A stretch of 64,000 nucleotides of DNA from an uncultured Solirubrobacterales bacterium (GCA_963805455.1 CAWDUJ010000004.1:32627-96626); one strand, 5' to 3'; counted from the first letter of the stretch, positions 3,848 to 64,000 are shown. Notes: a model not told the origin generated them from the letters alone. Translations and numbers: made by a program.

Positions 3848-5434
3848 ATGCACGACTACGTAATCATCGGCGCCGGCTCGGCCGGCTGTGTGCTCGCGGC
3901 GCGGCTGACCGAGGACCCCGACACCAGCGTCCTGCTGCTCGAGGCGGGGCCCCCCGACGTCAACGACAACATCCACGTACCGCTCGGCTACCTGCAGCTG
4001 GCGGGGACCGAGGTCGACTGGAACTACTGGGGCGCACCCGAACCCCAATGCAACGACCGCCGGATCCCGCTGCCGCGGGGCAGGGTGCTCGGAGGCTCCT
4101 CATCGATCAACGCGATGGTCTACATCCGCGGCAACCGGCGCGACTACGACGAGTGGAACGCGGCCGGCTGGTCCTGGGACGACCTCTTCCCCTACTTCCT
4201 GCGTTCCGAGGACAACGAGCGCGGCGAGTCCGAGTGGCACGCCGTCGGCGGCCCGCTCGCGGTCGGCGACCAGCGGTCGGGGATCGCGATCACCCCGGCG
4301 TTCGTCGAGGCGGGCGTCGAAGCCGGACTCGCCCGCAACGAGGACTTCAACGGCGCCGAGCAGGACGGGGTCGGGATGTACCAGGTGACCCAGCGCGGCG
4401 GGATGCGCGCCAGCGCCTCGGTCTCCTACCTGCACCCGGCGATGGAGCGGCCGAACCTCACCGTGGCGCCCTACACGCAGGTCCACCAAATCCTGTTCGA
4501 GGGCAACCGGGCGACCGGGGTCGCGGCCTCGCAGCTCGGGCAGATCCAGGAGCATCTGGCCGAGCGCGAGGTGATCCTCTGCGGCGGGGCCTACAACTCA
4601 CCCCAGCTGCTGATGCTCTCCGGGGTCGGCCCGGCCGAGCACCTGACGATGCGGGAAGTCGAGGTGGTCCTCGACCAGCCCGCCGTCGGTGAGAACCTCA
4701 GCGACCATCCCGCCACCTACGGGGTCTGGACGACGCCGGAGCCGGAGAGCCTCCTGCTCGCGCTCGAGCCCGCTGCCGTCGAGGAGTTCGAGGCCTCCCA
4801 GACCGGTCCCCTCACCTCCAACCTCGCCGAAGCCGGCGGCTTCGCCCGGGTCGGCGGCGGCGCCCCCGCCCCGGACATCCAGTTCCACGTCGCGGCGCTT
4901 CAGATCGTCGAAGAGGGGCTCGGCGACCCCGATGCCCACGGGCTCTGGGTCTCCCCCTGCCTCCTCACCCCCGAGACCCGCGGCTCGGTCCGCCTCGCGT
5001 CGAAAGACCCGACGGCGCGGCCGGTGATCCGAAACCGGTTCTACGAGGAGCCCGCCGACATGGCGCGAATGCTCGACGGTCTGCGGCTGATGGAGGAGAT
5101 CTGCGGCCAGCCGGCGATCAGACCCTATGCGGCCGAGCGCTACTACGCGCCGGAGGGCGACTCCGACGAGGATCTGCGCGCGCACGCGGCGCGGTCGACC
5201 TTCGCGATCTACCACCCGGTCGGGACCTGCGCGATCGGCTCGGTCGTCGACAACGACCTGCGCGTCAACGGCCTCGAGGGGATCCGCGTCGTCGACGCGT
5301 CGGTGATGCCGACGGTGCCGCGCGGGAACACCAACGCCCCGACGATCGCGATCGCCGAGCGGGCGGCGGACCTGCTCAGGGGCGAGACCCCGCTGCGGGC
5401 CGGGGCCGAGGCGGAGCAGCCAGCCGGCGCCTAG
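3848..5434 (+). CDS. GMC family oxidoreductase (choline dehydrogenase-like)
   Basis: Starts MHDYVIIGAGSAGCVLAARLTED (FAD GxGxxG) and has ...GGSSSINAMVY. The C-terminal HPVGTCAIG matches the GMC signatures. Confidence 0.9.
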   Translation: MHDYVIIGAGSAGCVLAARLTEDPDTSVLLLEAGPPDVNDNIHVPLGYLQLAGTEVDWNYWGAPEPQCNDRRIPLPRGRVLGGSSSINAMVYIRGNRRDYDEWNAAGWSWDDLFPYFLRSEDNERGESEWHAVGGPLAVGDQRSGIAITPAFVEAGVEAGLARNEDFNGAEQDGVGMYQVTQRGGMRASASVSYLHPAMERPNLTVAPYTQVHQILFEGNRATGVAASQLGQIQEHLAEREVILCGGAYNSPQLLMLSGVGPAEHLTMREVEVVLDQPAVGENLSDHPATYGVWTTPEPESLLLALEPAAVEEFEASQTGPLTSNLAEAGGFARVGGGAPAPDIQFHVAALQIVEEGLGDPDAHGLWVSPCLLTPETRGSVRLASKDPTARPVIRNRFYEEPADMARMLDGLRLMEEICGQPAIRPYAAERYYAPEGDSDEDLRAHAARSTFAIYHPVGTCAIGSVVDNDLRVNGLEGIRVVDASVMPTVPRGNTNAPTIAIAERAADLLRGETPLRAGAEAEQPAGA

Positions 5435-5446
5435 GGTCCGGTCCCG

Positions 5447-6094
5447 ATGGCGCGGGATTTCTACGCATCTCCGTTCGGGGTCGCCTACGCCGCCTACATG
5501 GAGCGGCCTAAGGTCGTCCGCTTGGTGGCGCGAACGGTCTGGGCGGGAGACACCCGGCCCTACTTCGAGAGCATGCGCGCGGTCACCGAGGTGCCCGAGG
5601 GCGGCACGATCGTCGACTGCCCGTGCGGCGCGGGCCCGGCGCTGCGGGCGCTCGACCGCGATCGCGCCGTCCGTTACATCGGCGCCGACCTCTCGCCGGC
5701 GATGCTCCGCCGGATCCGCAAGCGGGCCGCGACGCGGGGCCTGGACGGGCTCGAGCTCCACGAAGCCGACGCGACGGACCTGCCGCTCGAGGACGGGATC
5801 GCCGACCTCTTCCTCTCCTACTGGGGCCTGCACTGCTTCGAGGAACCCGCCGCGGCGATGCTCGAGGCGGCAAGGGTGATGAAGCCGGGTGGCCGGATCG
5901 TGGGCGCCTCCTTCGTCCACAGCGCCGAGACGCTGAGGCAGCGGCTGCTGATCCGCCCCGGCCTCGGCGACTTCGGCCCGATGGGGACCGAGGATGAGAT
6001 CCGCGGCTGGCTCGAGGACGCGGGCCTGCGGCCGACGTCCTGGCTCCGCGGCGGCTCGATGCTCTACTTCGAGGCGACACCGGCCACGGCCTGA
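5447..6094 (+). CDS. Class I SAM-dependent methyltransferase
   Basis: IVDCPCGAGP motif I and VMKPGGRIV post-II motif. Confidence 0.75.
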   Translation: MARDFYASPFGVAYAAYMERPKVVRLVARTVWAGDTRPYFESMRAVTEVPEGGTIVDCPCGAGPALRALDRDRAVRYIGADLSPAMLRRIRKRAATRGLDGLELHEADATDLPLEDGIADLFLSYWGLHCFEEPAAAMLEAARVMKPGGRIVGASFVHSAETLRQRLLIRPGLGDFGPMGTEDEIRGWLEDAGLRPTSWLRGGSMLYFEATPATA

Positions 6095-6108: not shown

Positions 6109-6732
6109 TCAGTCCCTGGTGCCGAGAGCCTCGTCGATGAACGGCCCGAGCAGCTCCCTCGCGGCCGCCGCGGTCGTCTCGCTGGGGGCGGTCGGGACGG
6201 TGATGTAGCTGATCGCCAACCGGACCAGCGATTCGGCGAGCAGCTGGGTCTTCTCCACCGGGGCCTGGGGCCAGCCCTCCTGGATCACGGTCGAGAGCCG
6301 GGCGGTCGCCCAGAGGACGATCGGCATCCCCTGGGTGGTGACGAACGGCAGCATGCCGCCGGTCCCGTCGTCGCTCAGCATCATCCGGACCAGCGGGTCC
6401 TCGCCGGCGGTCCGCAGGAAGGTGTCGAGGGCGGCGCCGACCGCGGCGTGGGGGTCGTCGAGATGCTCGCGCACCGCGGCCTCGACGATGTCGAGGAAGC
6501 GTTCGCCCTCGTGGATCACGAACGCCTGGGCGAACTCGTCGCGGCTGCCGAACTCCTTGTAGAGGGTCTGGCGGCTGACGCCGGCGGCGGTGGCGACTTC
6601 GGCCATCGTGATCTCCGACCAGGCGCGGTGCTGGAGCTCGTCGCGGGTGACCCCGAACAGGGTCTCGCGAAGGAGCTGCCGCGCCGCGACGGCATAGGGC
6701 GCTCGCTCGGGTGCCGTCGACATCGCCGCCAT
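6109..6732 (-). CDS. TetR family regulator of the alkB unit (AlkU-like position)
   Basis: HTH TMAEVATAAGVSRQTLYKEFGSRDE. Sits directly downstream of alkB-rubredoxin, as in actinobacterial alk clusters. Confidence 0.85.
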   Translation of the reverse strand: MAAMSTAPERAPYAVAARQLLRETLFGVTRDELQHRAWSEITMAEVATAAGVSRQTLYKEFGSRDEFAQAFVIHEGERFLDIVEAAVREHLDDPHAAVGAALDTFLRTAGEDPLVRMMLSDDGTGGMLPFVTTQGMPIVLWATARLSTVIQEGWPQAPVEKTQLLAESLVRLAISYITVPTAPSETTAAAARELLGPFIDEALGTRD

Positions 6733-6736
6733 CGTC

Positions 6737-6907
6737 TCAGCCGGCGTCGACGGGCTCGAAGTCGACTTTGTCGCGGACCCCGCAGTCGGGGCAGGCCCAA
6801 TCGTCGGGAACCTCGGACCAGGCCGTCCCGGGCGGGAAGCCCTCGCGGGAATGGCCCGCCTCCTCGTCGTAGACGTAGCCGCAGCTGGGGCAGCGATAGG
6901 CGCTCAT
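6737..6907 (-). CDS. rubA: Rubredoxin
   Basis: Below the ORF-track size cutoff. Manual translation gives MSAYRCPSCGYVYDEEAGHSREGFPPGTAWSEVPDDWACPDCGVRDKVDFEPVDAG*, with two CxxC pairs. Its ATG overlaps the alkB stop (ATGA). Confidence 0.9.
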   Translation of the reverse strand: MSAYRCPSCGYVYDEEAGHSREGFPPGTAWSEVPDDWACPDCGVRDKVDFEPVDAG

Positions 6908-8194: not shown

Positions 8195-8394
8195 ACGCGA
8201 CATCGGATGGCCAAGTGTAGCCGGGGGAATACCCAATAACGGTGGCGTTAGTCACGAAACATCCCGCTGCTTCCTCCGCTTCGCGTCCGGGGGCAGCGGC
8301 TATTCGCCATATCGGCGCCGCTCGCAGAGCATCAGATCGTGATGCTCGCTAATCGGCTCTTCAGAGGGGGCTAGAGGCAGCGGAAGGCGGCGGT

Positions 8395-8630: not shown

Positions 8631-11011
<2,381 letters not shown>

Positions 11012-11022
<11 letters not shown>

Positions 11023-11428
11023 TCGAGTTGTCTTCGGCGGCGGTGAACTTCGACGGGCACTTGGTGGTCAGCGTGTCCGGCTCGCCGGCGAAGACGCCGT
11101 CCTTCTCGACCTGGCCGGTGAGGACGATCTCGCGGCCCCCGCGGAACGGGTCGGGGACAGTGCCGGTGTAGGTGACGGGGATCGTCACCTTCGGGTCGTC
11201 GCGGTCGGCGACGCGGAAGCGGAGCCCCGAGCCCTGATGGGTGACCGAGCCGGGAACGACCTTGCCGGTCAGGTCGTAGCTGTTGCCGGGCGCGGCATTG
11301 AGAAGCTGGGAGGGCTCCTTCGCCTCGGTCGAGGCGCTGAACGAGGTGTAGACCAGGGCGGCGGAGAGCAGCACCGCGGTGCCGAGGGCGACGACCAGAC
11401 GGATCTTTCGCTTGCGGCTGGGATCCAC
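11012..11428 (-). CDS. ccmE: Cytochrome c maturation heme chaperone CcmE, Cys-type variant (CPSKF)
   Basis: N-terminal TM anchor, OB-fold pattern, C-terminal ...LTTKCPSKF in place of the canonical HxxxY. Confidence 0.8.
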
Positions 11429-25274: not shown

Positions 25275-26784
25275 CGAGCAACGACCGCCCGCTCATCGCC
25301 TCCGGCTGCTCGATTCCGAGCAGCTGCAAAGCGGTCGGGGCGACGTCGGCCAGGACCCCGCCCGAGCGCAGCTCGAGCCCGGCCGCGGTGACGATCAGCG
25401 GCACCGGGTTCAGCGAGTGGGCGGTGTTGGGCGAGCCGTCGGGCTCGAGCATGTGGTCGCAATTGCCGTGGTCGGCGGTGATGATGCAGGCACCGCCGGT
25501 ATCGATGACCGCAGCGACGACCTCGCCGAGACAGGCGTCGACCGCTTCGACCGCGGTGACCGCGGCCGGGATCACGCCGGTGTGGCCGACCATGTCCGGG
25601 TTGGCGAAGTTGAGGACCCCGAAGCCGTACTCGCCGCCCGACCAGCCGTCGACGAACGCGGCGGCGGCGGCCCGGGCGCTCATCTCCGGCTTGCGGTCAT
25701 AGGTCGGGACCTCGCGCGCGGACTCGACCAGCCGCCGGTCTTCCCCCTCCCACTCCTGCTCGCGGCCGCCGTTGAAGAAGTAGGTGACGTGGGCGTACTT
25801 CTCGGTCTCGGCGACGTGGAGCTGGCGCCTGCCGGACTCGGCGATCACCTCGGCCAGGGTCGTCTGCGGGCGCGCCTCGGGGAAGGCGACCGGGTAGGGC
25901 CAGCCCTGGCGGTACTCGGTCATCGTCGTCAGGTCGAGGACCGGGCCGCCGCTGCGCGAGAACTCCTCGAAGCCGGGTTCGGCCAGCGCCCGGGTCAGCT
26001 CGCGGGCGCGATCGGGGCGGAAGTTGAGGAAGATCGCGACGTCGCCCGCCGCCGCCCCGTCGTACCCGCCGATCACCGTCGGCTTGATGAACTCGTCGGT
26101 CTCGTCGCGGTCGTATGAGGCCTTGATCGACTCCGCCGAGGTCTCGGCGCCGAGGCCGCGGCCGTGGACGATCGCGTCATAGGCGAGCTTGGTCCGCTCC
26201 CAGCGGGTGTCGCGATCCATCGCGTAGAAGCGGCCGGAGACGGTTCCGACCCGACCCGCCCGGTAAAGCCAGCGCTCGAGCTCCTCGACGTAGCCGGCGC
26301 CTCCGTGGGGCAGGGTGTCGCGGCCGTCGGTGAAGGCGTGGAAGACGACGTCGGGGACGCCCTCCTGGGTGGCGAGCTCGATCGCGGCCTCGATGTGCTC
26401 CCAGCCGGAGTGGACGCCGCCGTCGGAGACGAGCCCGAGCAGGTGGAGCCGGCCGCGGGGACTGCGGCGGGCACGCTCACAGGCCGCCCTCAGGGCATCG
26501 TTCTCGAAGAAGCTGCCGTCGGCGACCGCGTCGTCGATTCGGGCCAGGTCCTGCTTGACGACGGCGCCGGCGCCGAGGTTGAGGTGGCCGACCTCGGAGT
26601 TGCCCATCTGCCCTTCGGGGAGGCCGACGTCGCGCCCCTGGGCGGAGAGCTGCGTGTGGGGGAACTCCGCCCAGAGCCGGTCGAAGACCGGCGTCTCGGC
26701 GAGCGAGATCGCGTTGCCGGGGCCGGAGTCGGCGATACCCCAGCCGTCGAGGATGACCAGCGCGACCGAGGGGACGGTGGGCAC
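25264..26784 (-). CDS. gpmI: 2,3-bisphosphoglycerate-independent phosphoglycerate mutase
   Basis: LVILDGWG, SEVGHLNLGAG, RFYAMDRD, ADHGN. Confidence 0.95.
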   Translation of the reverse strand: MPTVPSVALVILDGWGIADSGPGNAISLAETPVFDRLWAEFPHTQLSAQGRDVGLPEGQMGNSEVGHLNLGAGAVVKQDLARIDDAVADGSFFENDALRAACERARRSPRGRLHLLGLVSDGGVHSGWEHIEAAIELATQEGVPDVVFHAFTDGRDTLPHGGAGYVEELERWLYRAGRVGTVSGRFYAMDRDTRWERTKLAYDAIVHGRGLGAETSAESIKASYDRDETDEFIKPTVIGGYDGAAAGDVAIFLNFRPDRARELTRALAEPGFEEFSRSGGPVLDLTTMTEYRQGWPYPVAFPEARPQTTLAEVIAESGRRQLHVAETEKYAHVTYFFNGGREQEWEGEDRRLVESAREVPTYDRKPEMSARAAAAAFVDGWSGGEYGFGVLNFANPDMVGHTGVIPAAVTAVEAVDACLGEVVAAVIDTGGACIITADHGNCDHMLEPDGSPNTAHSLNPVPLIVTAAGLELRSGGVLADVAPTALQLLGIEQPEAMSGRSLLDEA

Positions 26785-27560
26785 TACCCGGCCGCCTCGA
26801 CGATCGCCGCGAATTCGGCCGGATCGAGGCTGGCGCCGCCGACCAGGGCCCCGTCGATGTCGGGCTGGGCCATCAGCTCGGCCGCGTTGTCGGGCTTGAC
26901 CGAGCCGCCGTAGAGGATCCGGACCCGGTCGGCCTCCGCCCCGCCCTCGCGCAGCACGTCGCGGATGAAGGCGATCGTCTCCTGGGCCTGCTCGGGGGTC
27001 GCGGTGCGACCTGTCCCGATCGCCCAGATCGGCTCGTAGGCGATCGTCACCTCCGCCACCCGGGTCGGATCGACGGCGGCGAGATCGGCCCGCAGCTGGC
27101 CCTCGAGCACGGCGTCAGTCTGTTCCGCGTCACGGGCCTCCTCGGTCTCGCCGACACAGAGGATCGGGTCGAGACCCGCCGCGAGCGCCGCCGGGACCTT
27201 GCGAGCCAGGGCCTCGTCGGTCTCGCCGAAGAGCTGGCGGCGCTCGGAGTGGCCGAGGATGACCGCCTCGACGTCGGCCTCGACCAGCATCGGCGCCGAG
27301 ACCTCACCGGTGAACGCCCCGGACTCCCCCTCGTGCATGTTCTGGGCGGCGACACGGACGGCGCTCCCGCGCGATCGCTCGACCACCTCGCTCAGCGCGA
27401 GGAAGGACGGGCAGATGACGACGTCGTGCTGGGTGGCGGCGATTCGCGGCAGCAGCGCGTCGACGAACTCCGCCGCCTCGGCGACGGTCTTGTTCATCTT
27501 CCAGTTGGCGGCCAATAACGGGGTCCGCGTGCTCTGCTCCCGCTCGCTCGCGCTCATCAT
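26784..27560 (-). CDS. tpiA: Triose-phosphate isomerase
   Basis: AANWKMN, GHSERR, AYEPIWAIGTG. Start taken at ATGATG 27555-27560, overlapping the pgk stop. The longer track ORF is a shadow over pgk. Confidence 0.9.
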   Translation of the reverse strand: MMSASEREQSTRTPLLAANWKMNKTVAEAAEFVDALLPRIAATQHDVVICPSFLALSEVVERSRGSAVRVAAQNMHEGESGAFTGEVSAPMLVEADVEAVILGHSERRQLFGETDEALARKVPAALAAGLDPILCVGETEEARDAEQTDAVLEGQLRADLAAVDPTRVAEVTIAYEPIWAIGTGRTATPEQAQETIAFIRDVLREGGAEADRVRILYGGSVKPDNAAELMAQPDIDGALVGGASLDPAEFAAIVEAAG

Positions 27561-27604
27561 CCCCGGTTTCCTCGCTCGCTCGCACCCGCGTCCGCCGCGG
27601 ACCC
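27521..27604 (-). repeat. Palindromic element copy J (family A), straddling the pgk stop and tpiA start
   Basis: Terminal arms GGGTCCGCG/CGCGGACCC. Shares the 16-mer CCGCGGCGGACGCGGG and the 18-mer CGGGAGCAGAGCACGCGG with copy U. Confidence 0.75.
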
Positions 27605-28873
27605 GCGGTCTAGTAGTGCCTCCACTCCGGGCAGGGTTTTTCCCTCCAATAGCTCCAAGGATGCTCCTCCTCCGGTTGAAATCCAGTCGATTCGGTCGGC
27701 CAGCCCGAACTGGTGCACTGCCGCGACCGAATCGCCGCCGCCGACCACGGTCATCCCCGGCGCCGCGGCGACCGCCTCGGCGACGGTGCGGGTCGCCGCG
27801 GCGAAGGGCTCGAGCTCGAAGGCGCCCATCGGGCCGTTCCAGAGGACCGTTCCGGCCGCGGCGATCGCCTCCGCGTAGGAGGCCGCGGTGCGGGGGCCGA
27901 CGTCGAGGCCCATCCAGCCGTCGGGGACCTCGACCCCGTCGCTCTCGCGGCGCTCGGTCTCGGCGTCGAAGCTCCTGCCGAGGACGAGGTCGACGGGGAG
28001 CTCCAGATCGCAGTCCGATCCCTCGGCCCGCCTCAGCGCCTCGGCGGCGAGCTTCACCCCCTCCTCCTCGACCAGCGAGTCGCCGGTGGCGATCCCCTCG
28101 GCGCGGAAGAAGCTGAAGCACATCGCGCCGCCGATCAGGATCCGGTCGGCGATCTCGAGAAAGCGGTCGATGACCCCGACCTTGTCGGAGACCTTGGCGC
28201 CGCCGAGGACGACCACCAGGGGCCGCGCGGGGGATTCGACGACGGCGGTCAGCTCGGTGACCTCGCGCTCGAGCAGAAGCCCGGCGTAGCCGGGCAGGAG
28301 GTGGGCGACGCCCTCGGTGCTGGCGTGGGCCCGATGGGCGGCGCCGAAGGCATCGTTGACGTAGATTCCGGCGAGGGCGGCGAGCCGCCGCGCCAACCCG
28401 GGGTCGTTCTCGGTCTCACCCGGCTCGAAGCGGAGGTTCTCGAGCAGCAGAATCTCGCCCGGGCCGAGCCCGGCGGCCAGCTCCTCGACCTCGGCGCCGA
28501 CCACCGCCGGCGCCTGCCCGACCTCGGCGCCGAGGAGCTCGGCGAGGCGGGCGCCGACCGGCGCCATCGAGAGCTCGGGGTCGGGCTTGCCGCCGGGACG
28601 CCCTAGGTGCGAGGCGAGGACGATCGAGGCGCCGCGCTCACGCAGGAGTTCGATCGTCGGCAGCGCCGCCCTGATCCGGGTGTCGTCTCCGACGACATAT
28701 TCCGCCGCCTCCTCTGCTCCCGCTCGCCCGGGAGAGTCAGATATGGATCCGGGCTCGCTCCCGCGTCCGGGGGCGGCGGGCGTGGCTTTCAAAGGTACGT
28801 TGAAATCCACGCGGAGCAGCACCCGCTCGCCCGCGACGGGGGCGTCGCGGACGCTTGCCTTCGAGAAGCTCAC
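27557..28873 (-). CDS. pgk: Phosphoglycerate kinase (carries a 26-aa in-frame insert and a 15-aa tail)
   Basis: VDFNVPL...DDTRIRAALPTI...GGGDS. Insert is PAAPGRGSEPGSISDSPGRAGAEEAA. Confidence 0.95.
   Translation of the reverse strand: MSFSKASVRDAPVAGERVLLRVDFNVPLKATPAAPGRGSEPGSISDSPGRAGAEEAAEYVVGDDTRIRAALPTIELLRERGASIVLASHLGRPGGKPDPELSMAPVGARLAELLGAEVGQAPAVVGAEVEELAAGLGPGEILLLENLRFEPGETENDPGLARRLAALAGIYVNDAFGAAHRAHASTEGVAHLLPGYAGLLLEREVTELTAVVESPARPLVVVLGGAKVSDKVGVIDRFLEIADRILIGGAMCFSFFRAEGIATGDSLVEEEGVKLAAEALRRAEGSDCDLELPVDLVLGRSFDAETERRESDGVEVPDGWMGLDVGPRTAASYAEAIAAAGTVLWNGPMGAFELEPFAAATRTVAEAVAAAPGMTVVGGGDSVAAVHQFGLADRIDWISTGGGASLELLEGKTLPGVEALLDRGSAADAGASERGNRG
28702..28779 (-). repeat. 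Palindromic element copy P (family A), in-frame inside pgk
   Basis: 78 nt. Arms CCGCCGCC/GGCGGCGG, blocks CGGACGCGGGAG, TCCATATCTGACTCT and CGGGAGCAGAG shared with copy U. Confidence 0.75.
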
Positions 28874-28886
28874 CGTCGCGAGTCGC

Positions 28887-30279
<1,393 letters not shown>

Positions 30280-30322
30280 GGCAGCGGAGGCTATACAGGC
30301 GACCGCCCCGGTGCGGAGACGG

Positions 30323-31078
30323 CTACCCGCCGCGGGGGGTCCAGCGGAAGTAGCGGATCGCGAGCAGGAGGCCGGCGACGCCCCAGGCGGCGACGACGGC
30401 GAGGTGGTGCCATGGAATCCCGGTTCGGTCGACGTAGACGGCGAAGAAGGCCTGGAAGAAGTGGCGGACCGGGAAGAAGTCGGCGAAGTGGATGACGCCG
30501 CCCGGCAGCTCGCCGTCGGGGATGAAGACGCCGGAGAGGAAGTAGAGCGGCAGCAGCAGCGCGTTGACGATCGGTGCCGCGGCATCCTGGGAGGGGATCG
30601 CGGCGGTCAGCGCGATCCCGAGGCAGCAGAACGATGCCGCCCCAACCGCGAGGACGACCAGCAGCTCGGGCAGGTGCGCCCAGGGGATCCCGACTCCGTA
30701 GATGACGCGCCCGATCCCGACGACGATCGAGAACATCAGCAGCGAGAGGACGATCGAGTTGCCGATTTTGCCGGCGATGAAGACCCAGGCGGGCATCGGG
30801 GTGCCCCGGCCTCGCTTCAGGCGCCCGTCCTCGCGCGCGATCACGACCGTCATCGCCAGCGTCTGCATCGTCGCCGAGATCACCGCCAGGGTGATGATCG
30901 CCGGGACGTAGTAGGTGGTCGCCTCGATCCCGCCCTCTTCGGCGATCTTGGCTTCGCCGAAGACGACGGCGAAGATCAGCAGGAGCAGGACCGGGAACAT
31001 CACGGTGAAGAAGACGGCAGCCGGATTGCGCCAGAAGACCTTCTGGTCAAACCGCAGCTGGTGCAGGACGAGCCTCAT
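30323..31078 (-). CDS. ABC-2 type transporter permease
   Basis: MRLVLHQLRFDQKVFWRNPAAVFFT... with six predicted TM segments. Its ATG overlaps the ATPase stop (ATGA). Confidence 0.8.
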   Translation of the reverse strand: MRLVLHQLRFDQKVFWRNPAAVFFTVMFPVLLLLIFAVVFGEAKIAEEGGIEATTYYVPAIITLAVISATMQTLAMTVVIAREDGRLKRGRGTPMPAWVFIAGKIGNSIVLSLLMFSIVVGIGRVIYGVGIPWAHLPELLVVLAVGAASFCCLGIALTAAIPSQDAAAPIVNALLLPLYFLSGVFIPDGELPGGVIHFADFFPVRHFFQAFFAVYVDRTGIPWHHLAVVAAWGVAGLLLAIRYFRWTPRGG

Positions 31079-31926
31079 TCCTGGCGGGTGAGGGTCAGGT
31101 AGATGTCCTCGAGGCTCGGGCGCGAGACTTCCAGCCCCTCGAGCTCGAACCCCTCGGCGAGGGCACGCCCGGTCAGCTCGTTCAGCGCCCGGACCGGGTC
31201 GTCGGTCTCGATCGAGACCTGCTCGCCGTTGCGGCTGTAGGTGATCGTCGTCGTCTGGGCGTCGCGGTCGCCGAGGTCCTGCGGGGCGCCACCGGCGACG
31301 ATCTCGCCACCGGCGATGATCGCGACCCGGTCGGCGAGGCGCTGGGCCTCGTCCATGTAGTGGGTGGTGAGGAAGACCGTCTTGCCGAGGTCGCGGAGGC
31401 CGGCGATCAGGTCCCACGCCTGGCGCCGTGCCTGGGGATCGAAGCCGGTGGTCGGCTCGTCTAAGAAGAGCAGGTCGGGGTCCCCGATCAGCGCCATCCC
31501 GACGTCGAGGCGGCGCTGCTGGCCTCCCGAGAGGCTGCCGGCGCGTGCATCGGCCTTCTCGACCAGCCCGACCAGCCCGATCGTCTCCTCGATCGGGCGC
31601 GGCTCGTCGTAGTAGCCGGCGAACAGTTCGAGCGACTCTCGCACCGTCAGGTACGGCTCGAGCTTGCAGCTCTGCAGCACGATTCCGATCCGCTCGCGCC
31701 AGGCCCGGTCGGCCTCGGCCGGGTCCTCGCCAAGGACGGTGACCTCCCCGGCGTCGCGGTCGCGGTAGCCCTCGAGGATCTCGACCGTGGTCGTCTTCCC
31801 CGCCCCGTTCGGGCCGAGAAACGCGAAGACCTCGCCGGGGCCGACCTCGATCTCGATCCCGCGGACCGCCTCGACGTCGCCGTAGCTCTTGCGCAGGCCG
31901 CTCGCACGGATCACAGGTTCAGCCAC
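31075..31926 (-). CDS. ABC transporter ATP-binding protein
   Basis: GPNGAGKTT, LSGGQQRRL, LLFLDEP. GTG start at 31926 (VAEPVIRASGL). Confidence 0.85.
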   Translation of the reverse strand: MAEPVIRASGLRKSYGDVEAVRGIEIEVGPGEVFAFLGPNGAGKTTTVEILEGYRDRDAGEVTVLGEDPAEADRAWRERIGIVLQSCKLEPYLTVRESLELFAGYYDEPRPIEETIGLVGLVEKADARAGSLSGGQQRRLDVGMALIGDPDLLFLDEPTTGFDPQARRQAWDLIAGLRDLGKTVFLTTHYMDEAQRLADRVAIIAGGEIVAGGAPQDLGDRDAQTTTITYSRNGEQVSIETDDPVRALNELTGRALAEGFELEGLEVSRPSLEDIYLTLTRQE

Positions 31927-31937
31927 GGGGTTGATTC

Positions 31938-32849
31938 TTACGAGTCGAGCTCGACGTCGCGGTGCTTGACCCGCAGGGTCACGTCCTCGCGCCCGTCGAG
32001 ATCGCGCCGGATGCGGTCGGCGACGGTCACCGAGCGGTGGCGTCCCCCCGTGCACCCGATTGCGATCGTGAGGTGGCTCTTGCCCTCGGCGACGTAGGCG
32101 GGGACGAGGAAGTCAAGCAGTGGCAGCAGCCTGCCGTAGAACTCTCCGGCCTGGGTCCCCGACTCGACGTACTCCCGCACCTCCCTGTCGAGGCCGGTCA
32201 GCGGCCGCAGCTCGTCGACGTAGTGGGGGTTGGGGAGGAAGCGGACGTCGAGGGTCAGGTCCGCGTCCCGCGGGGGGCCGTTCTTGAACCCGAAGGTGAG
32301 CAGGGTCAGGGCGAGCTTGCCGCCGCCGTCGCTGCCGAGCATCTCCTCCGCAATCCGGCTTCGAAGGGCGCCACTGGTGAGGTCGCTGGTGTCCATGACG
32401 ACGTCGGCCCGGGCCCGCAGCGGCGAGAGCAGCTCGCGCTCGGCCCGGATCCCCTCGACGATCCTTCCCTCAGGAGCGAGAGGGTGGCGGCGGCGGGTCT
32501 CCTTGTAGCGGTCGACCAGGGTCTCCTCGTCGGCCTCGAGGAAGAGGACCCTCGGCTTCACCCCGTCGGCGTCGAGGTCGTCGAGCACCTGGATCAGGTC
32601 GTCGAAGTAGTCGCCGCCTCGCACGTCGGAGACGACCGCGGCCCGCTCGACGCCGCTGCCGGGGTGGCGGAAGAGCTCACCGAGGCTGCCGATCATCCGC
32701 GGTGGCAGGTTGTCGACGCAGAAATAACCGCCGTCCTCGAAGGCGGCGATCGCCTCCGACTTGCCGGCCCCGGAGTGGCCGGTGATGACGACCATCGTCA
32801 CCCCGGGCTCGGCGCTCGCCCCGTCTGCCTGCGAATCCTCGGCCATCAA
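31938..32849 (-). CDS. rapZ: RNase adapter / nucleotide-binding protein RapZ (YvcJ)
   Basis: VVITGHSGAGKSEA...FCVDNLP...IGCTGGRHRSV. Confidence 0.9.
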   Translation of the reverse strand: MMAEDSQADGASAEPGVTMVVITGHSGAGKSEAIAAFEDGGYFCVDNLPPRMIGSLGELFRHPGSGVERAAVVSDVRGGDYFDDLIQVLDDLDADGVKPRVLFLEADEETLVDRYKETRRRHPLAPEGRIVEGIRAERELLSPLRARADVVMDTSDLTSGALRSRIAEEMLGSDGGGKLALTLLTFGFKNGPPRDADLTLDVRFLPNPHYVDELRPLTGLDREVREYVESGTQAGEFYGRLLPLLDFLVPAYVAEGKSHLTIAIGCTGGRHRSVTVADRIRRDLDGREDVTLRVKHRDVELDS

Positions 32850-34801
32850 CCTGTCCTGTTCAGCTGCTCGTGGATGTCGCGGGCCACTTTGCCAGGGACC
32901 CCGGGCACCGCCTCGAGTTCCTCCCTGGTGGCCGCGACCAGCCGCTCCGGCGAACCGAAGTGCTGGAGGAGGGCTCGCTTCCGCGCCTGGCCCACGCCCT
33001 TGATCTCGTCGAGGACCGAGCCCGTCATCGCCCTGTCGCGGCGGCCGCGGTGATGCTCGATCGCGAACCGGTGGGCCTCGTCGCGGATCCGCTGCAGCAG
33101 CTTCGAGGCCTCGGAGTCGGCGGCGAGGTCGACCGGGACCGAGCGACCCGGGACGAAGACCTCCTCCTCGCGCTTGGCGAGCGAGGCGACCGTGACCCCG
33201 CGCTCGACGAATGGCTGCAGCGACCGCATCGCGGCGGCGAGCTGACCCTTGCCGCCATCGACAACGACCAATGAGGGCAGCGACGCGAAGCTCGAGTCGC
33301 GTTTGCCGTCATGCGGCGAGAGATCGGCCTGCTCGAGGTAGCGGTTGACCCGCCTGGTCAAGACCTCTTCAACTGCCGCAAAGTCGTCCTGCCTCCCACC
33401 CGCCCGCGGCGGACGCGGGAGGACATCGCCGTCCATTTCTGACTCTTTGGCGGTGTCCGGGAGCAGAGCACGCGGGCGGAAATTGATTTTGAAGCGCCGG
33501 TAGTCCGACTTCTTCGTCGCGCCGCCCTCGAAGACGACCATCGAGGCGACCGTGTGCTCGGCCCCGAGGTTGGAGATGTCGTAGCCCTCGATCCGGATCG
33601 GCAGCTCCTCCATCGCCAGCGCCTCGCGCAGGTCGGCGAGCGAGTCGACCCGGCGCTGGCGGCGGTGCTCGCGACGGAGGCGGTCCTGGTCGAGGGCGAG
33701 GCGCGCGTTGCGCTCGGCGAGCTCGCGCAGGCGCCGCTTGTCGCCGCGCTCGGCGACCCGTACCTCGACCGGCGCCCCGCGCTCCTCGCTGAGCGCGGAG
33801 GCGAGCAGCTCGGCCCGGTCCGCCAGGTAGGGCCCGACGACGATCGTCCGCGGAACCGAGGGCGAGGCCGAGTAATACTGACCGAGGAACTCCTCGGCGA
33901 CCTCGGCGGGCTCGCGTTCGGCCTGGTTGTCGAGGTAGAAGCTCTGGCGCTCGGCGAGGATCCCGTCGCGGACCTGGAAGACCTGGGCGTTGGCGTCGGC
34001 CCCCTCGGTGGCGACCCCGATCAGGTCGGCCGTTCCGACAGACCCGCCGGCGATCCGCTGCCGCTCGAACAGGGACCGGATCGCCTTCAGTCGGTCGCGG
34101 TGGACCGCCGCCCGCTCGAATTCCTGCGATGCCGCGGCGGAATCCATCTTCGCCTCCTCGTCCGCCTCGACCTGGCGGTAGTGACCGGAGAGGAAGGCGA
34201 CGATCGCGTCGATGTTGCGACGGTACTCATCGCTGCTGATGTATCCGACGCAGGGCGCGCCGCAGCGCTTGATGAAGTAATCGAGGCAGGGGCTGCCGGA
34301 GCGGCGGCCCGGCTCGGCTCCCTCGCAGGTGCGGAACTGGAACAGCTTGCCGAGCAGGTCGAGTGTCTCGCGGACCCGCTTGGCGCTCGAGAAGGGGCCG
34401 AAGTAGGCGCGTCCGGGACGGTGCTTTTCGCGGGTGAAGTAGACCCGCGGGTACTCCTCGTCGAGACTGACGCAGACGTAGGGATAGGACTTGTCGTCGC
34501 GGAGGCGGATGTTGAAGCGCGGGCGGTGGCGCTTGATGAAGCTCTGCTCGGCGAGCAGGGCCTCAGCCTCGGTCGCGGTGACCAGGAACTCGATCCTCTC
34601 GACCCGCGAGGTGAGCCGGGTCTCGCCGCCGGAGAAGTGGGAGGCGACGCGTTTGCGGATCGAGCGCGCCTTGCCGACGTAGAGCAGCTCGTCATCGCCG
34701 CCATGGAAGAGGTAGACGCCCGGGGAATCGGGCAGCTCGCGGCGCTGCTGCGCGATCCGCTCCGCCCGCGTCCCGCCCTCATCTCCGTGCTCTTCGGCCA
34801 T
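32846..34801 (-). CDS. uvrC: Excinuclease ABC subunit C (carries a ~26-aa in-frame insert)
   Basis: GIY-YIG module GVYLFHGGDDELLYVGKA and a C-terminal HhH. Insert RPRALLPDTAKESEMDGDVLPRPPRA lies between the FKI and DDFA motifs. Confidence 0.95.
   Translation of the reverse strand: MAEEHGDEGGTRAERIAQQRRELPDSPGVYLFHGGDDELLYVGKARSIRKRVASHFSGGETRLTSRVERIEFLVTATEAEALLAEQSFIKRHRPRFNIRLRDDKSYPYVCVSLDEEYPRVYFTREKHRPGRAYFGPFSSAKRVRETLDLLGKLFQFRTCEGAEPGRRSGSPCLDYFIKRCGAPCVGYISSDEYRRNIDAIVAFLSGHYRQVEADEEAKMDSAAASQEFERAAVHRDRLKAIRSLFERQRIAGGSVGTADLIGVATEGADANAQVFQVRDGILAERQSFYLDNQAEREPAEVAEEFLGQYYSASPSVPRTIVVGPYLADRAELLASALSEERGAPVEVRVAERGDKRRLRELAERNARLALDQDRLRREHRRQRRVDSLADLREALAMEELPIRIEGYDISNLGAEHTVASMVVFEGGATKKSDYRRFKINFRPRALLPDTAKESEMDGDVLPRPPRAGGRQDDFAAVEEVLTRRVNRYLEQADLSPHDGKRDSSFASLPSLVVVDGGKGQLAAAMRSLQPFVERGVTVASLAKREEEVFVPGRSVPVDLAADSEASKLLQRIRDEAHRFAIEHHRGRRDRAMTGSVLDEIKGVGQARKRALLQHFGSPERLVAATREELEAVPGVPGKVARDIHEQLNRTG
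33400..33479 (+). repeat. Palindromic element copy U (family A), inside uvrC and antisense to the gene
   Basis: Arms CCGCCCGCG/CGCGGGCGG. Inner 10-bp stem GGACATCGCC/GGCGGTGTCC surrounds loop GTCCATTTCTGACTCTTT. Confidence 0.75.
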
Positions 34802-37273: not shown

Positions 37274-38848
37274 TCAGGGCGTCGCGGTCCGGACCCGGTA
37301 GATGTGGAACACCGACTGCCGCAGACCGTGTTTGAACTTCTTCGCGTGGACCAACTGGCGCACGATCAGGAGCTTCTTCTGCGGTTTCTTCGCCATTTTC
37401 GCCACCGTGGAGGTGAACTTGGGCTTGATCTTCAGTTTCGCCACCTTCCACTTGTTCGGCTTCTGCTTTGCAGATACCGACGCCGTGATCGGCTCACCGG
37501 GCTTGCAGCGACGGCGCCCCTTCCTGGTCGCACACCGCTTCTTCACCGTCACCGCCGAGGCCGCACCGATGCATTCGGGCTTGAACCTGTGTGCGCATTT
37601 GAGGCGCAGGTAGAGGAACCTGCCTTCCAGTAGCGCGGTGTTGAAATCGGGCGGCACCGGCGGGCCGACCCGGTGGGTGGCGCTGGTCTGGGTCGCGGCC
37701 CCGGCCTGATTCGATCCGGTCACCAGACAGACGTACTGGCCGGCTTTGGACGCCGCGATCGAGGGGCTGGTCGCGCCCGCGACAACTTTGCCGTCTCGGC
37801 TCCACTGGTAGGCGAACGAGCTTGGAGCGCGGTAGAGCAGCGCTTCGAAGATGTCGGCGGCCCAGGCCCCCTGCGAGCAGGAGAGGGTCATTCCGATGTC
37901 GGAGCCACCGCCGATGGTCGGGGGGCCGGTGCCGATCGGGGCTTTCTGGACGATCGGGAAGGCCGGCCCTTCGGTGGTCGCTCCCGCGGTGGAGAGCGGT
38001 CCGCCGCCGCTGCCGTCGAGCCTGGCGAACCCGATGGTGTCGCTGGCTCCTTCGCCGCCGTTGTTGGCCCAGTAGACGATCCCCGTTTCGGGATCGATCG
38101 CGACCCCCCAGGGCACGTCGACCGGGGCGCCGGTCGTCGGCAGGTCGGCGCCGCCGCTGCCGTCGAGCCTGGCGAAGCCGATCGTTCCCCCAAGATCGGA
38201 CCAGAAGATCCGCCGCGAGCTGGGATCGATCGCGACCCCGGCGGGAATCACGACGGTCGCTCCGGCGGTGTTGAGGTCGCCGCCGCCGCCGCTGTCGTTC
38301 GAATTGGCGAACGAGATCGTCGCGCCGTTGTAGTTGGACCAGTAGACCCGGCCGGCGGCGGGGTCGACGGTTATCCCGGAGGGCCCATCGAGAGTGGCTC
38401 CCGTCGTGTTGAGGTCGGCCCCGCCGCTGCCGTCGAGGCTGGCGAAGGAGATCGTCCCGGGAACGGTGTCATTGGCCCAGAAGATCTTCCTCGAAGCCGG
38501 GTCTATCGCGAGCCCATCCGGAGCCTGGACGCTCGCCGAGCCGGTGTTGAGATTCCCTCCCGGGCTTCCGTCCGGGTTGAGGAAGGAGATCGTGTTGGCG
38601 CCCTCGTTGGTGTAGTAGATGCGTCCCGTCGCCGAGTCGATCGCCATCCCGGCCGCTCCAGTCGCGCCGTTGAAGATGTCCCCGGCGCCACCGCCGGCGA
38701 GGTTGGCGAAGGAGAGCGCTTTGCCGTTGTCGTTGCCCCAATAGACCCGGTCGGCGCCGGCGGAGGATGCCGGCAGCACCGCCGCAAGGACACAGGCGAG
38801 AGAGACCGCGGCCAAGAACCAGGCTTTTGGTTCTCGAAATTGCACCAA
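37274..38848 (-). CDS. Secreted six-bladed YWTD/NHL-like beta-propeller protein with Ig-like domain and Lys-rich C-terminal tail
   Basis: Signal peptide. Six repeats: RVYWGNDN, RIYYTNEG, KIFWANDT, RVYWSNYN, RIFWSDLG and IVYWANNG, each followed by ISFA.LDGSGG.L.T. Then ...YQWSRDG...YVCLVTGSN (Ig-like). The tail is rich in K/R. Confidence 0.7.
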   Translation of the reverse strand: MVQFREPKAWFLAAVSLACVLAAVLPASSAGADRVYWGNDNGKALSFANLAGGGAGDIFNGATGAAGMAIDSATGRIYYTNEGANTISFLNPDGSPGGNLNTGSASVQAPDGLAIDPASRKIFWANDTVPGTISFASLDGSGGADLNTTGATLDGPSGITVDPAAGRVYWSNYNGATISFANSNDSGGGGDLNTAGATVVIPAGVAIDPSSRRIFWSDLGGTIGFARLDGSGGADLPTTGAPVDVPWGVAIDPETGIVYWANNGGEGASDTIGFARLDGSGGGPLSTAGATTEGPAFPIVQKAPIGTGPPTIGGGSDIGMTLSCSQGAWAADIFEALLYRAPSSFAYQWSRDGKVVAGATSPSIAASKAGQYVCLVTGSNQAGAATQTSATHRVGPPVPPDFNTALLEGRFLYLRLKCAHRFKPECIGAASAVTVKKRCATRKGRRRCKPGEPITASVSAKQKPNKWKVAKLKIKPKFTSTVAKMAKKPQKKLLIVRQLVHAKKFKHGLRQSVFHIYRVRTATP

Positions 38849-58743: not shown

Positions 58744-58752
58744 GACAAATCC

Positions 58753-58811
58753 TCGCGCTTCACTCGCTGCGCGAAGAAACAGAAGATGACGCTTGCCCGC
58801 TCCGCGCTCAC
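58753..58811 (-). repeat. Family B leader repeat, copy R1 (ends 9 nt before the HD gene ATG)
   Basis: Minus-strand read is GTGAGCGCGGAGCGGGCAAGCGTCATCTTCTGTTTCTTCGCGCAGCGAGTGAAGCGCGA. Confidence 0.8.
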
Positions 58812-58860
58812 GAGAGGAGATCGTAGGGGAGAGGAAGGCGCGACCCGCCCAAACAATGGA

Positions 58861-63026: not shown

Positions 63027-63038
63027 GCCGGTGATCGA

Positions 63039-63396
63039 TGGAGGCGGCCGGAATTGAACCGGCGTCCCTGGTCGTAGCGCGAAGGCGTCTACAGGCATAG
63101 CCGGCGCTTGATTCTCGTCTCCCGGGGTCCGCGCCGGCGGGCACTGCGGAAGATAAAGCCCCTCAAATTTCCCCTGGCGGCCGAGGCGCTCCGCCTGGGT
63201 GAGCCCGCAATTGAAGCCGGAACCCCCCTCCGCGGGCGGGAGAGGGCCGACTCTCACCTACTTAGCTATTGACTAAGCAGCGAGGGCGAACTCATGGTCC
63301 GCACGTATTGGTTGGTGCCGGTGTTTTGCGAGGCCTCCGGCAACCTCGGCCTGCAACCGTTCGCACGGACCGACCAGATCGAAGCCTGTCGCCCCC
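63039..63396 (-). ncRNA. ssrA: tmRNA (transfer-messenger RNA)
   Basis: The 5' GGGGGCGACAGGCTTCGA pairs with the 3' ...GGACGCCGGTTCAATTCCGGCCGCCTCCA, giving an acceptor stem with G3:U70 and a T-arm. The tag frame ends ...GCG GAC CAT GAG TTC GCC CTC GCT GCT TAG = ...ADHEFALAA*. Confidence 0.9.
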
Positions 63397-63429
63397 GTGC
63401 TATGTCTGCCTCAATTGTACGGTTCCCCG

Positions 63430-63488
63430 GTGAGCGCGGAGCGAGCAAGCGTGCATATCTGGTCCTTCGCGCAGCGAGAGAAGCGCGA
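63430..63488 (+). repeat. Family B leader repeat, copy R3 (ends 9 nt before the oxidoreductase ATG)
   Basis: GTGAGCGCGGAGCGAGCAAGCGTGCATATCTGGTCCTTCGCGCAGCGAGAGAAGCGCGA. About 50 of 59 positions are identical to R1 by hand alignment. Confidence 0.8.
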
Positions 63489-63497
63489 GAGCCTGTG

Positions 63498-64000
63498 ATG
63501 GCTGAGCGGGAATTCGACGCAATCGTCCTCGGCGCCGGAGCTCCCGGGGAGGTCTGTGCCGGCCGCCTCGCCGAAGGCGACCTCAGGGTCGCGATCGTCG
63601 AGCCCGGGCTCCTCGGCGGCGAATGCTCCTACTACGCGTGCATGCCCTCGAAGGCCCTGCTGCGCCCCGGCGAGCTGCTCGCCGAGGCCCGCCGGGTCCC
63701 CGGCGTGCTGCAGGCGGTCACCGGAAGCCTCGACCCCGAGGCGACGCTGGCGAGGCGCGACGAGGTGATCCACGACCTCGACGACTCGGGTCAGCTGTCC
63801 TGGCTCGAGGGCCGCGGCATCAAGCTCTTTCGCGGCGCCGGCCGGCTCGACGGCGAGCGCCGGGTCGTGGTCGGTGACGACGTCCTGACCGCGGCGAGGG
63901 CGATCGTCGTCGCCACCGGCAGCAGCGCGGAGATGCCGCCGATCGACGGCCTCGACACGGTGCGGGCCTGGAACAACCGTGAGGGGACGACCTCGCGGCG
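63498..64000 (+). CDS. Class I pyridine nucleotide-disulfide oxidoreductase (dihydrolipoyl dehydrogenase / mercuric reductase-like), partial
   Basis: Not in the ORF track because there is no stop in the window. Reads MAEREFDAIVLGAGAPGEVCAGRLAE...GGECSYYACMPSKALL, with the redox CxxxxC. Confidence 0.8.
   Translation, partial: MAEREFDAIVLGAGAPGEVCAGRLAEGDLRVAIVEPGLLGGECSYYACMPSKALLRPGELLAEARRVPGVLQAVTGSLDPEATLARRDEVIHDLDDSGQLSWLEGRGIKLFRGAGRLDGERRVVVGDDVLTAARAIVVATGSSAEMPPIDGLDTVRAWNNREGTTSR

Follow-up and report, generated by a model that had tools for sequence, protein, structure and literature searches.

A 64,000-nucleotide stretch of DNA from an uncultured Solirubrobacterales bacterium (GCA_963805455.1 CAWDUJ010000004.1:32627-96626, hereafter the window) contains three copies of one hairpin-forming repeat family of about 80 bases. 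Copy P lies within pgk, copy U within uvrC, and copy J at the junction of pgk and tpiA. The family is previously undescribed, and its hosts are soil Solirubrobacterales, members of the high-GC Actinomycetota. Its members are lineage-specific, multi-copy nested hairpins, variants of which are shared by unrelated loci, whose presence and orientation at orthologous sites are polymorphic, and which run in frame through essential genes. What the element is by nature, selfish or structural, we can only infer. [quoted passage not shown]

A preliminary description made from the window sequence alone had proposed that P, U, and J share one architecture, and every sequence detail it quoted is present. 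Read on the strand that we call O, the purine-rich common orientation in which the repeat anatomy is described, all three share CGGACGCGGG(A/T)G and CGGGAGCAGAG, and CGGACGCGGG and CGGGAGCAGAG each have three exact occurrences in the 64 kb, only at P, U, and J. The 16-mer and 18-mer common to J and U are there, as are the CGGACGCGGGAG, TCCAT(A/T)TCTGACTCT, and CGGGAGCAGAG common to P and U, the complementary terminal arms within each of the three copies, the 10-bp inner stem of U with its one G-T pair, and the inner stem of P, in which 8 of 10 positions pair and the two exceptions form a tandem G.A/A.G. P is, as had been described, sense to pgk and U antisense to uvrC, both in frame. P encodes ...TPAAPGRGSEPGSISDSPGRAGAEEAAEY..., and U occupies a UvrC linker with YRRFKI on one side and DDFA on the other. 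The figure of about 26 added codons holds only approximately: relative to empty orthologs PGK gains 28 residues, and in UvrC, where the insert took the place of part of the old linker, the net gain is 23. J contributes the final 16 codons and the TGA of pgk together with the ATG and first ~11 codons of tpiA, and in its loop, GGGGATGATGAGC, the pgk TGA (27559-27557) and the tpiA ATG (27560-27558) overlap as ATGA.

Related genomes hold further copies in large numbers. A search of bacterial and archaeal contigs, one genome per species, for the exact core pattern CGGACGCGGG-N30-55-CGGGAGCAGAG gave at least 114 matches in public genomes. Among the matches listed, about 106 extracted copies come from metagenome-assembled genomes (MAGs) titled Solirubrobacterales, Conexibacteraceae, or Thermoleophilia, and the range of the family is essentially the Solirubrobacterales (class Thermoleophilia); the few copies assigned to other taxa seem to be chance matches or binning noise. 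The G+C content of the copies is 59-80%, and covariance-model (CM) scores are 85-108 bits. A gathering-threshold Rfam scan of the window returned only a tmRNA and one tRNA, with no match to the element, and a scan of 26500-34500 at E <= 10 found nothing overlapping P, U, or J. A search of viral_contigs gave no match to the element, and a literature search turned up no account of repeats like these from Thermoleophilia, Solirubrobacterales, or Conexibacter. A 43-residue profile of the insert peptide run against 5.8 billion proteins had one match (P0121, 55 residues), short matches being below significance at a database of that size.

The genome is ~70% G+C, GGCGGC-like strings are common in it, and shuffled sequence has single motifs with one mismatch at least as often, all of which would be expected if the resemblance were a chance likeness within GC-rich coding sequence rich in Gly, Ala, Pro, and Arg, or if the segments were ancestral, lineage-specific protein loops. 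This explanation is refuted by the confinement of exact two-motif matches to three sites in the window and their recurrence at more than 100 places in one bacterial order, by the CM scores, by the fact that the frame and the strand in which the same DNA is read vary among proteins, and by the lack of the segments in most orthologs.

Copies of the family are nested hairpins of ~80-90 nt. On the O strand an outer arm of 6-9 nt (GCCGCC-like) is followed by CC or CG and CGGACGCGGGAG, and then by an inner stem of 10-11 bp whose sequence differs in almost every copy with the pairing kept. The inner stem is capped by a conserved loop, and the 3' part consists of CGGGAGCAGAG, GA or CA, the complementary arm, and an AAT(A/T)T tail, which accompanies the element in both orientations. 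Type A, to which P and U belong, has a core of 57-61 nt and the loop TCCATATCTGATTCTTC, and type B, to which J belongs, has a core of 62-65 nt and the loop GAGATCGCCGGTGATGATGAGC; rarer apical modules also exist. In a mini form of ~40 nt (...CGGACGCGAAGCGGAG...), seen at ~10 places, merely AA stands in place of the inner stem-loop. The mini form occupies the PGK site of L115, L144, L157, and L183 (L numbers denote loci of other genomes, P numbers proteins). Copies can also adjoin one another: L073 has two tandem type-B copies between pgk and tpiA (6680-6835), and L193 has a composite junction of a type-A remnant followed by a type-B copy (11140-11290). Identical variants, one of them with a C.C mismatch, are found at unrelated loci of different genomes. 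Outer arms are heritable within sublineages, the unrelated loci L008 and L011 sharing the unusual arms CCGCTCATC/GATGAGCGG and a second sublineage having CATC/GATG. The J site of L195 and the GGCGG strings of Gly codons at empty PGK and UvrC sites had given rise to the idea that the outer arms are copied from the target; it was rejected since the same unusual arms occur at unrelated loci in both of these sublineages.

Both stems covary. In gap-free alignments the inner helix is paired at 95% in type A and 87% in type B. Among the 42 type-A copies, which carry 33 different inner stems, 10 of the 11 pairs of the inner helix have changed on both sides; among the 33 type-B copies 8 of 11 have done so (17 of 20 pairs overall). 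These counts are inflated, since some copies are orthologous and do not represent independent events. Covariation in type A is 0.577 versus 0.177 in shuffled alignments and in type B 0.350 versus 0.13, with 0 of 500 shuffles reaching the observed value in either type. Pairing each position with a slid partner gives 0.10-0.15 in type A and 0.06-0.15 across both types, so that the covariation is far above both controls. The outer arms covary too (column 14-74 is C-G 29 times, G-C 13 times, and never unpaired), and the apical loop is nearly invariant though it lies outside the search pattern. Folded alone and compared with shuffled sequences, P (z = -2.3) and U (z = -3.3) are more stable and J (z = -0.8) is not. 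The preliminary description had spoken of covariation of a selected hairpin. The covariation is there; selection is not proven by it alone, because DNA-level palindrome correction could also yield covariation, and template switching is well established as a mutational route by which imperfect inverted repeats are corrected.

Mismatches within the stems are biased by strand. Read on the O strand there are 18 G.T versus 3 A.C mismatches (p = 0.0015), and all 52 tandem G.A/A.G cells are on this strand. This strand specificity indicates that it is the O strand that folds, also in copies such as U, where this strand runs antisense to the host gene. Since the mismatches are on the O strand regardless of the direction of the host gene, the folded form is more likely single-stranded DNA than mRNA.

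The placement of the copies was examined with stop-to-stop and GC3 (third-codon-position G+C) gene calling, which is crude and makes the intragenic and gene-end categories approximate. By this screen 24 copies run in frame through long coding open reading frames (ORFs), and about a quarter of the copies lie in frame inside conserved proteins. Ten hosts are confirmed by Pfam (an ABC transporter, Lhr helicase, Dxs, IleRS, UvrA, an SdhB-like Fe-S protein, MMPL, SMC, HisF, and AlaRS), and PGK and UvrC of the window are additional to these. The RPE-like behavior that had been suggested from P and U is thus borne out by in-frame copies within many unrelated genes. A single Pfam domain spans the insert in the cases of tRNA-synt_1, SMC_N, and His_biosynth, and in Dxs, UvrA, AlaRS, and the ABC transporter the insert falls between domains. 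IleRS hosts copies at two sites, and the SdhB-like site holds type A in L024 and L059 and type B in L096. The encoded peptides differ (PAAPGRGSE..SISDS..AGAEEAA; AASSAPAT..ESDMD..SLPRPGAAG; PRTRERGREISGDDERVLAGAEEA) because copies are read in either orientation and in several frames; most copies have four to five of their six frames open.

Core length differs sharply between settings. Type-A copies with a 58-nt core, for which arms plus core amount to 78 nt, are intragenic in 10 of 12 cases, and those with a 59-nt core in 5 of 45 (Fisher p = 4e-6). This skew is what a frame-preserving survival filter predicts, and, as far as sequence can tell, it argues that the inserts are translated and not removed. 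Tiny introns cut out of the mRNA were considered and appear unlikely, intragenic copies being strongly enriched for frame-keeping lengths. Modeled with AlphaFold from an alignment of 44 sequences (mean predicted local distance difference test score, pLDDT, 77), the window PGK keeps the PGK fold, and insert residues 35-56, with pLDDT below 50, lie in a loop between strands 28-30 and 59-61, the remainder of the fold being confident. The surface loop expected in the preliminary description thus appears as a low-confidence loop of a beta-hairpin, and the modeled position of the insert would be compatible with the protein fold. The J-encoded C-terminal tail of PGK (422-438) is also of low confidence (pLDDT below 50).

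Many more copies supply the final codons and the stop of a gene or are situated shortly upstream of a start codon. For 105 copies the flank was long enough to be scored: 10 sense and 14 antisense ORFs terminate within the core, many further ORFs stop a few bases or less from an arm, TAG, TAA, or TGA being directly against GCCGCCCC, and several genes begin 8-18 nt past the AGAGGAGG 3' end. Depending on the frame, the type-B loop reads TGA TGA TGA or ATG ATG, and T runs follow the copies in L004, L041, L047, and L088. Such positions raise the alternative of a host-functional structured RNA, be it an mRNA stabilizer, terminator, processing site, or translational-coupling module, multiplied as useful and with intragenic copies as tolerated by-products. 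It would account for the strong covariation around apical and internal loops that are conserved and unpaired, for the tolerance of G.U and tandem G.A on one strand only, for the many copies against stop codons or 8-18 nt before starts, where AGAGGAGG is Shine-Dalgarno-like in position, for the T runs, and for the stop/start overlap of pgk and tpiA that J supplies. We nevertheless regard it as unlikely: copies at gene 3' ends are similar in number in the two orientations (~30 sense versus ~41 antisense), U is antisense to uvrC so that its folding strand is outside that mRNA, the hosts show no gene-family association, close relatives do without copies at the same sites, and no Rfam family matches. 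A hammerhead-like or other ribozyme, considered because of CUGAU/GAUGAG in the loops, was dropped for want of support from Rfam.

Comparison of orthologous sites shows that the inserts are not ancestral; together with the further copies and the covariation above, each of the three outcomes that the preliminary description had named as refuting is thereby decided in its favor. PGK was compared with its 120 nearest relatives, which are 79-97% identical outside the insert. The site is empty, with the ordinary turn VPLxDGRVADDTRI, in 92 PGKs; 15 have a sense copy, 4 an antisense copy at the same place (P0002, P0010, P0021, P0038), 7 the mini form (..PGREAEE..), and 3 a deletion remnant. These states are scattered on a neighbor-joining tree of this single gene, without support values, and require 20 parsimony steps, the window PGK and P0001 being sister to the empty P0004. 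In 80 metagenomic pgk loci (~0.9 Mb) the PGK site is mostly empty, and the three recognizable family copies are all at the pgk-tpiA junction. UvrC relatives have a Gly-rich linker of 8-16 residues at the U site, except for L010, which holds an orthologous copy, and L129, where the copy is degenerate; a short Gly-rich linker is likewise present in all but one of 36 metagenomic UvrC relatives. Orthologs of J are found in L196, L145, L166, and L193, with the tandem pair in L073, and ~70 relatives have an empty, overlapping ATGCCTGA junction.

The loci L195 and L196 share the uvrC-rapZ-ABC-ABC2-glyoxalase-gap-pgk-tpi-iPGM-tgt block of the window, and their PGKs are 92% and 90% identical to that of the window. 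The window has a sense copy at the P site, an antisense copy in the UvrC linker, and J. In L195 the P site is empty, the UvrC linker holds a different copy, in sense orientation and elsewhere (after KKGVEGQTT), and the J site is empty with AGAGCACGCGGACCCC kept. L196 has an antisense copy at the P site (CM 93 bits, opposite strand), an empty UvrC linker (RKGVEDPTTDDFA), and J. The two IleRS sites are sense, antisense, or empty among L011, L020, L053, and L074. Tolerant loops have thus been struck repeatedly, or copies have been inverted and exchanged in place, and since orthologous sites are found filled, empty, inverted, or as remnants, copies come and go within the time over which species diverge.

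Several of these loci show further detail. In L129 strongly diverged copies are present at the PGK and UvrC sites (8703-8841 and 3881-4010), both in frame, which on sequence evidence shows old inserts decaying at the DNA level while the frame is kept. The "empty" J site of L195 (9155-9227) retains 16 nt of the element, AGAGCACGCGGACCCC being the J 3' motif and arm, beside the canonical GATGCCTGAG, and looks like either a recombinant of filled and empty alleles or a deletion remnant. The pgk stop/tpiA start overlap of L120 (~5262-5460), L128, L144, and L187 holds an insertion of another element, ~165-190 nt long, which has a terminal inverted repeat of its own (AGATGCCTGA ... TCAGGCATCT). With a second type of element at the same overlap, the pgk-tpiA junction is a hot spot for small mobile elements.

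The same comparisons bear on the possibility that the repeats have ceased to be discrete mobile units, or never were such, and that old insertions pass between related lineages by allelic homologous recombination while quasi-palindrome template-switch correction, and no selection on structure, keeps the stems. The S-type PGK inserts share junction residues (..AAEYVV..) and yet are scattered on the PGK tree, the P0003 insert is partly decayed in a protein otherwise nearly identical to empty alleles, and the L195 J site resembles a recombinant of empty and filled alleles, as this explanation would have it. It does not account for the occurrence of the same variant, mismatched stem included, at many non-homologous sites of different genomes, nor for the UvrC linkers of the window and L195, which hold two different copies at other points and in other orientations. 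Neither the strand asymmetry of G.T versus A.C nor the greater conservation of loops than of stems is expected from pure DNA correction. We consider this explanation very unlikely.

The mobile-repeat reading would work as follows. The element would spread at the DNA level, mobilized in trans, with the hairpin needed for its movement; a fold in single-stranded DNA would suit a structure-recognizing enzyme, e.g. an HUH/Y1 transposase as for REP-RAYT. Because these genomes are compact, insertions would persist only where an intergenic spacer is very short or a surface loop or inter-domain linker is tolerant, and selection would purge the rest. Survival within a gene would require that the added length be a multiple of three and the frame open. 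The 3' end AGAGGAGG could act as a Shine-Dalgarno site, and a copy could substitute for a gene end, an operon junction (J), or a protein loop (P, U) with expression surviving; its open frames, along with the stop, start, and Shine-Dalgarno-like signals that it contains, would raise the odds of survival. The inserted peptides would be passengers without a conserved function, their sequence set by frame and orientation.

Several observations weigh against this reading. No transposase is among the genes of the 17-kb syntenic neighborhoods of L195 and L196, and a search of ~1.8 Mb of loci for an autonomous element, with the 5' and 3' motifs 0.12-4 kb apart, found chance pairs only; the loci examined for a mobilizing gene are 8-21-kb slices of genomes. 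No consistent direct repeat flanks the copies as a target-site duplication would, and between filled and empty PGK, UvrC, and pgk-tpiA sites a few host bases are replaced, not duplicated. Among the genomes compared no nearly identical pair differs by one copy, so that no insertion event was caught. The S-type PGK inserts share one right junction (AEYVV), and part of the polymorphism may come from homologous recombination or deletion and not from fresh transposition. To these points are added the inflated structural counts mentioned above and the conservation of the apical and internal loops, which is at odds with plain neutral decay of selfish copies, though part of it follows from searching with an exact pattern.

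More tentatively, and with doubt, we entertain the view that the family represents a new class: a strand-specific, hairpin-guided mobile element made translation-compatible by evolution and able to colonize essential genes of compact genomes. Such an element would combine a conserved platform of arms and purine-rich internal loops (in the mini form, GCGAAGC) with apical modules that can be exchanged, and a structure-recognizing enzyme would handle it as single-stranded DNA, inserting, excising, and inverting it at the same protein loops.

Among known systems the RPEs are the closest in behavior. RPE-1 to RPE-10 (Ogata et al. 2000, 2002) are, in the part of PMC10969869 that summarizes them, short palindromes in many copies, a large fraction of which are in frame in unrelated housekeeping genes, with the inserted peptide in a loop compatible with the fold, intergenic copies as well, and no transposase known; the family described here is alike in these respects. 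As far as that summary goes, RPEs are ~100-150 bp long, versus ~80-90 nt here, and belong to an AT-rich obligate intracellular alphaproteobacterium, whereas the present hosts are a free-living, high-GC actinobacterial order of soil. The family further differs in its nested hairpin, its hypervariable covarying inner stem, and its interchangeable apical modules, and its use of both orientations and several frames leaves no single conserved peptide. Common descent with RPEs is implausible, because the copies are 59-80% G+C and their matches are in the Solirubrobacterales/Thermoleophilia, and the likeness is one of behavior. The preliminary description took Rickettsia to be the only well-known precedent, which does not hold: intragenic REPs, which the family also matches in behavior, are reported from several phyla (PMC3733652), and intragenic MITEs have been reviewed (PMC10969869).

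Like REPs and REPINs and the GTAG/CGTC repeats (PMC3733652; RAYT-associated, PMC2817692), the family consists of small, G+C-rich, imperfect palindromes, with heterogeneous stems within a family and a short unpaired tail. REPs are present in high copy number; for the present family the 64 kb of the window, with three canonical, one mini, and two divergent copies, give an estimate. REPs lie mostly between convergent or co-directional genes near stops, and here many copies abut stops or are entered by ORFs from either side; some copies are intragenic in both cases, DNA-repair genes included, and REPs are thought to work as single-stranded DNA hairpins. A REP is, however, a single stem of 8-9 bp with a loop of 4-5 nt, or a head-to-head dimer of these, in contrast to the nested two-helix structure with large, conserved, purine-rich internal loops found here, and no RAYT gene was seen in the 8-21-kb locus slices. 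The element ends in GCCGCC-like arms and then the AAT tail; there is no GTAG, and CGTC occurs only internally on the complementary strand. Without a terminal tag and not being a single short stem-loop, the family is outside the GTAG/CGTC REP super-families, and the survey in PMC3733652 reported no such families in Actinobacteria.

MITEs such as ERIC/RU, Correia, and BOX (PMC2759123, PMC2229807, PMC10969869) resemble the family in being structured, non-autonomous elements of less than 200 bp, which can form in-frame fusions with ORFs of the host and provide stops, starts, or regulatory signals. Terminal inverted repeats are present here in the form of the complementary, covarying outer arms of 6-9 bp. 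They differ from those of MITEs in being only ~9 nt and variable between sublineages; there is no target-site duplication, no parent insertion sequence is recognizable in the loci examined, and the overlap with coding sequence is far above usual MITE reports. Without a target-site duplication the family is not a classical MITE.

A further actinobacterial comparison is with the mycobacterial interspersed repetitive units (MIRUs), to which the family is not known to have sequence similarity and which occur in a different bacterial class. MIRUs reportedly lie at intercistronic operon junctions, can be tandemly duplicated, and contain short ORFs with ends that overlap the neighboring genes' stop and start codons; they are said to be direct tandem repeats, not palindromes, and not to lie inside protein-coding genes. 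J resembles them in overlapping the pgk stop and tpiA start, as does L073 with its two tandem J copies. The present family is a palindrome dispersed singly and also inside genes, and, not being a direct tandem repeat, it is not a MIRU; J mimics the MIRU type of stop/start overlap.

Palindromic repeats that colonize coding sequence are thus already precedented. What is new is the scale and the host lineage, the nested and modular architecture, a structure specific to one strand, and the fact that the same protein loops are occupied repeatedly. RPE-style colonization is usually held to be typical of Rickettsia and a few other lineages; here it is found at scale among the free-living, high-GC soil bacteria of a widespread order. 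The dozens of insertions of 26-28 residues in PGK, UvrA, UvrC, IleRS, AlaRS, SMC, HisF, and others are natural experiments in which the same protein loop can be observed empty, filled either way, or with a remnant, and they make a tractable system for studying protein insertion tolerance and the origin of new loops. The covariance model and more than 100 copies are a well-defined target for finding the hairpin-moving enzyme. A caution concerns Thermoleophilia MAGs, in which the inserts will confuse both gene-boundary calls and taxonomic markers based on indels.

Table 1. Repeat copies and their host genes in the window (CM, covariance-model score)
Feature	Type	Position	Strand	Setting and evidence
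Copy P	A (58-nt core)	28698-28783	-	Sense and in frame in pgk; CM 86 bits
Copy U	A (59-nt core)	33397-33482	+	Antisense and in frame in uvrC; CM 84.6 bits
Copy J	B (63-nt core)	27517-27608	-	pgk/tpiA junction; CM 31.4 bits; nhmmer type-B E = 9e-14
Mini copy	Mini	8260-8303	-	Arms GCCGCTGCC/GCAGCGG around CCCGGACGCGAAGCGGAGGA; CM 22.9 bits, E = 4e-4
Divergent relative		63417-63497	+	Loop GTGCATATCTGGTCCTTC; CM 16.5 bits; alignment; inverted repeat I1; directly upstream of tmRNA gene
Divergent relative, second copy		58744-58824	-	CM 14 bits; alignment
pgk		27557-28873	-	Hosts P, ends inside J; PF00162 relatives
uvrC		32846-34801	-	Hosts U; syntenic UvrC genes with Pfam domains in L195 and L196
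tpiA		26784-27560	-	Start inside J loop (ATGATGAGC); PF00121 in syntenic loci

A covariance model built from the 42 type-A copies of other genomes was run on the window (Table 1), where the 64 kb hold three canonical copies, one mini copy, and two divergent relatives, the last three being additions to those of the preliminary description. The mini copy contains GCGAAGC, lacks the inner stem-loop, and has an orthologous copy in L041 whose arm changes are compensatory. Adjoining it at 8320-8350 (-) is a degenerate fragment (AGCGAGCATCACGATCTGATGCTCTGCGAGCGG) that resembles the interior of the L195 UvrC-linker copy and is, judging by this resemblance, probably a decayed adjacent copy. The divergent pair forms a 76-nt inverted repeat with partners 4.6 kb apart, 58744-58824 being 79% complementary to 63430-63505, and the tmRNA gene beside it is at 63036-63396 (-; 139 bits). 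The type-B apical loop GATGATGAGCGC (27547-27562) is closely like the empty pgk-stop/tpiA-start overlap GATGCCTGAGCGC of L116-L191, which may be coincidence or may mean that the type-B module derives from an intercistronic junction. Elsewhere in the window, four to seven tandem repeats of ~135-138 nt with 66-89% identity (37965-38720) probably encode a repeat protein.

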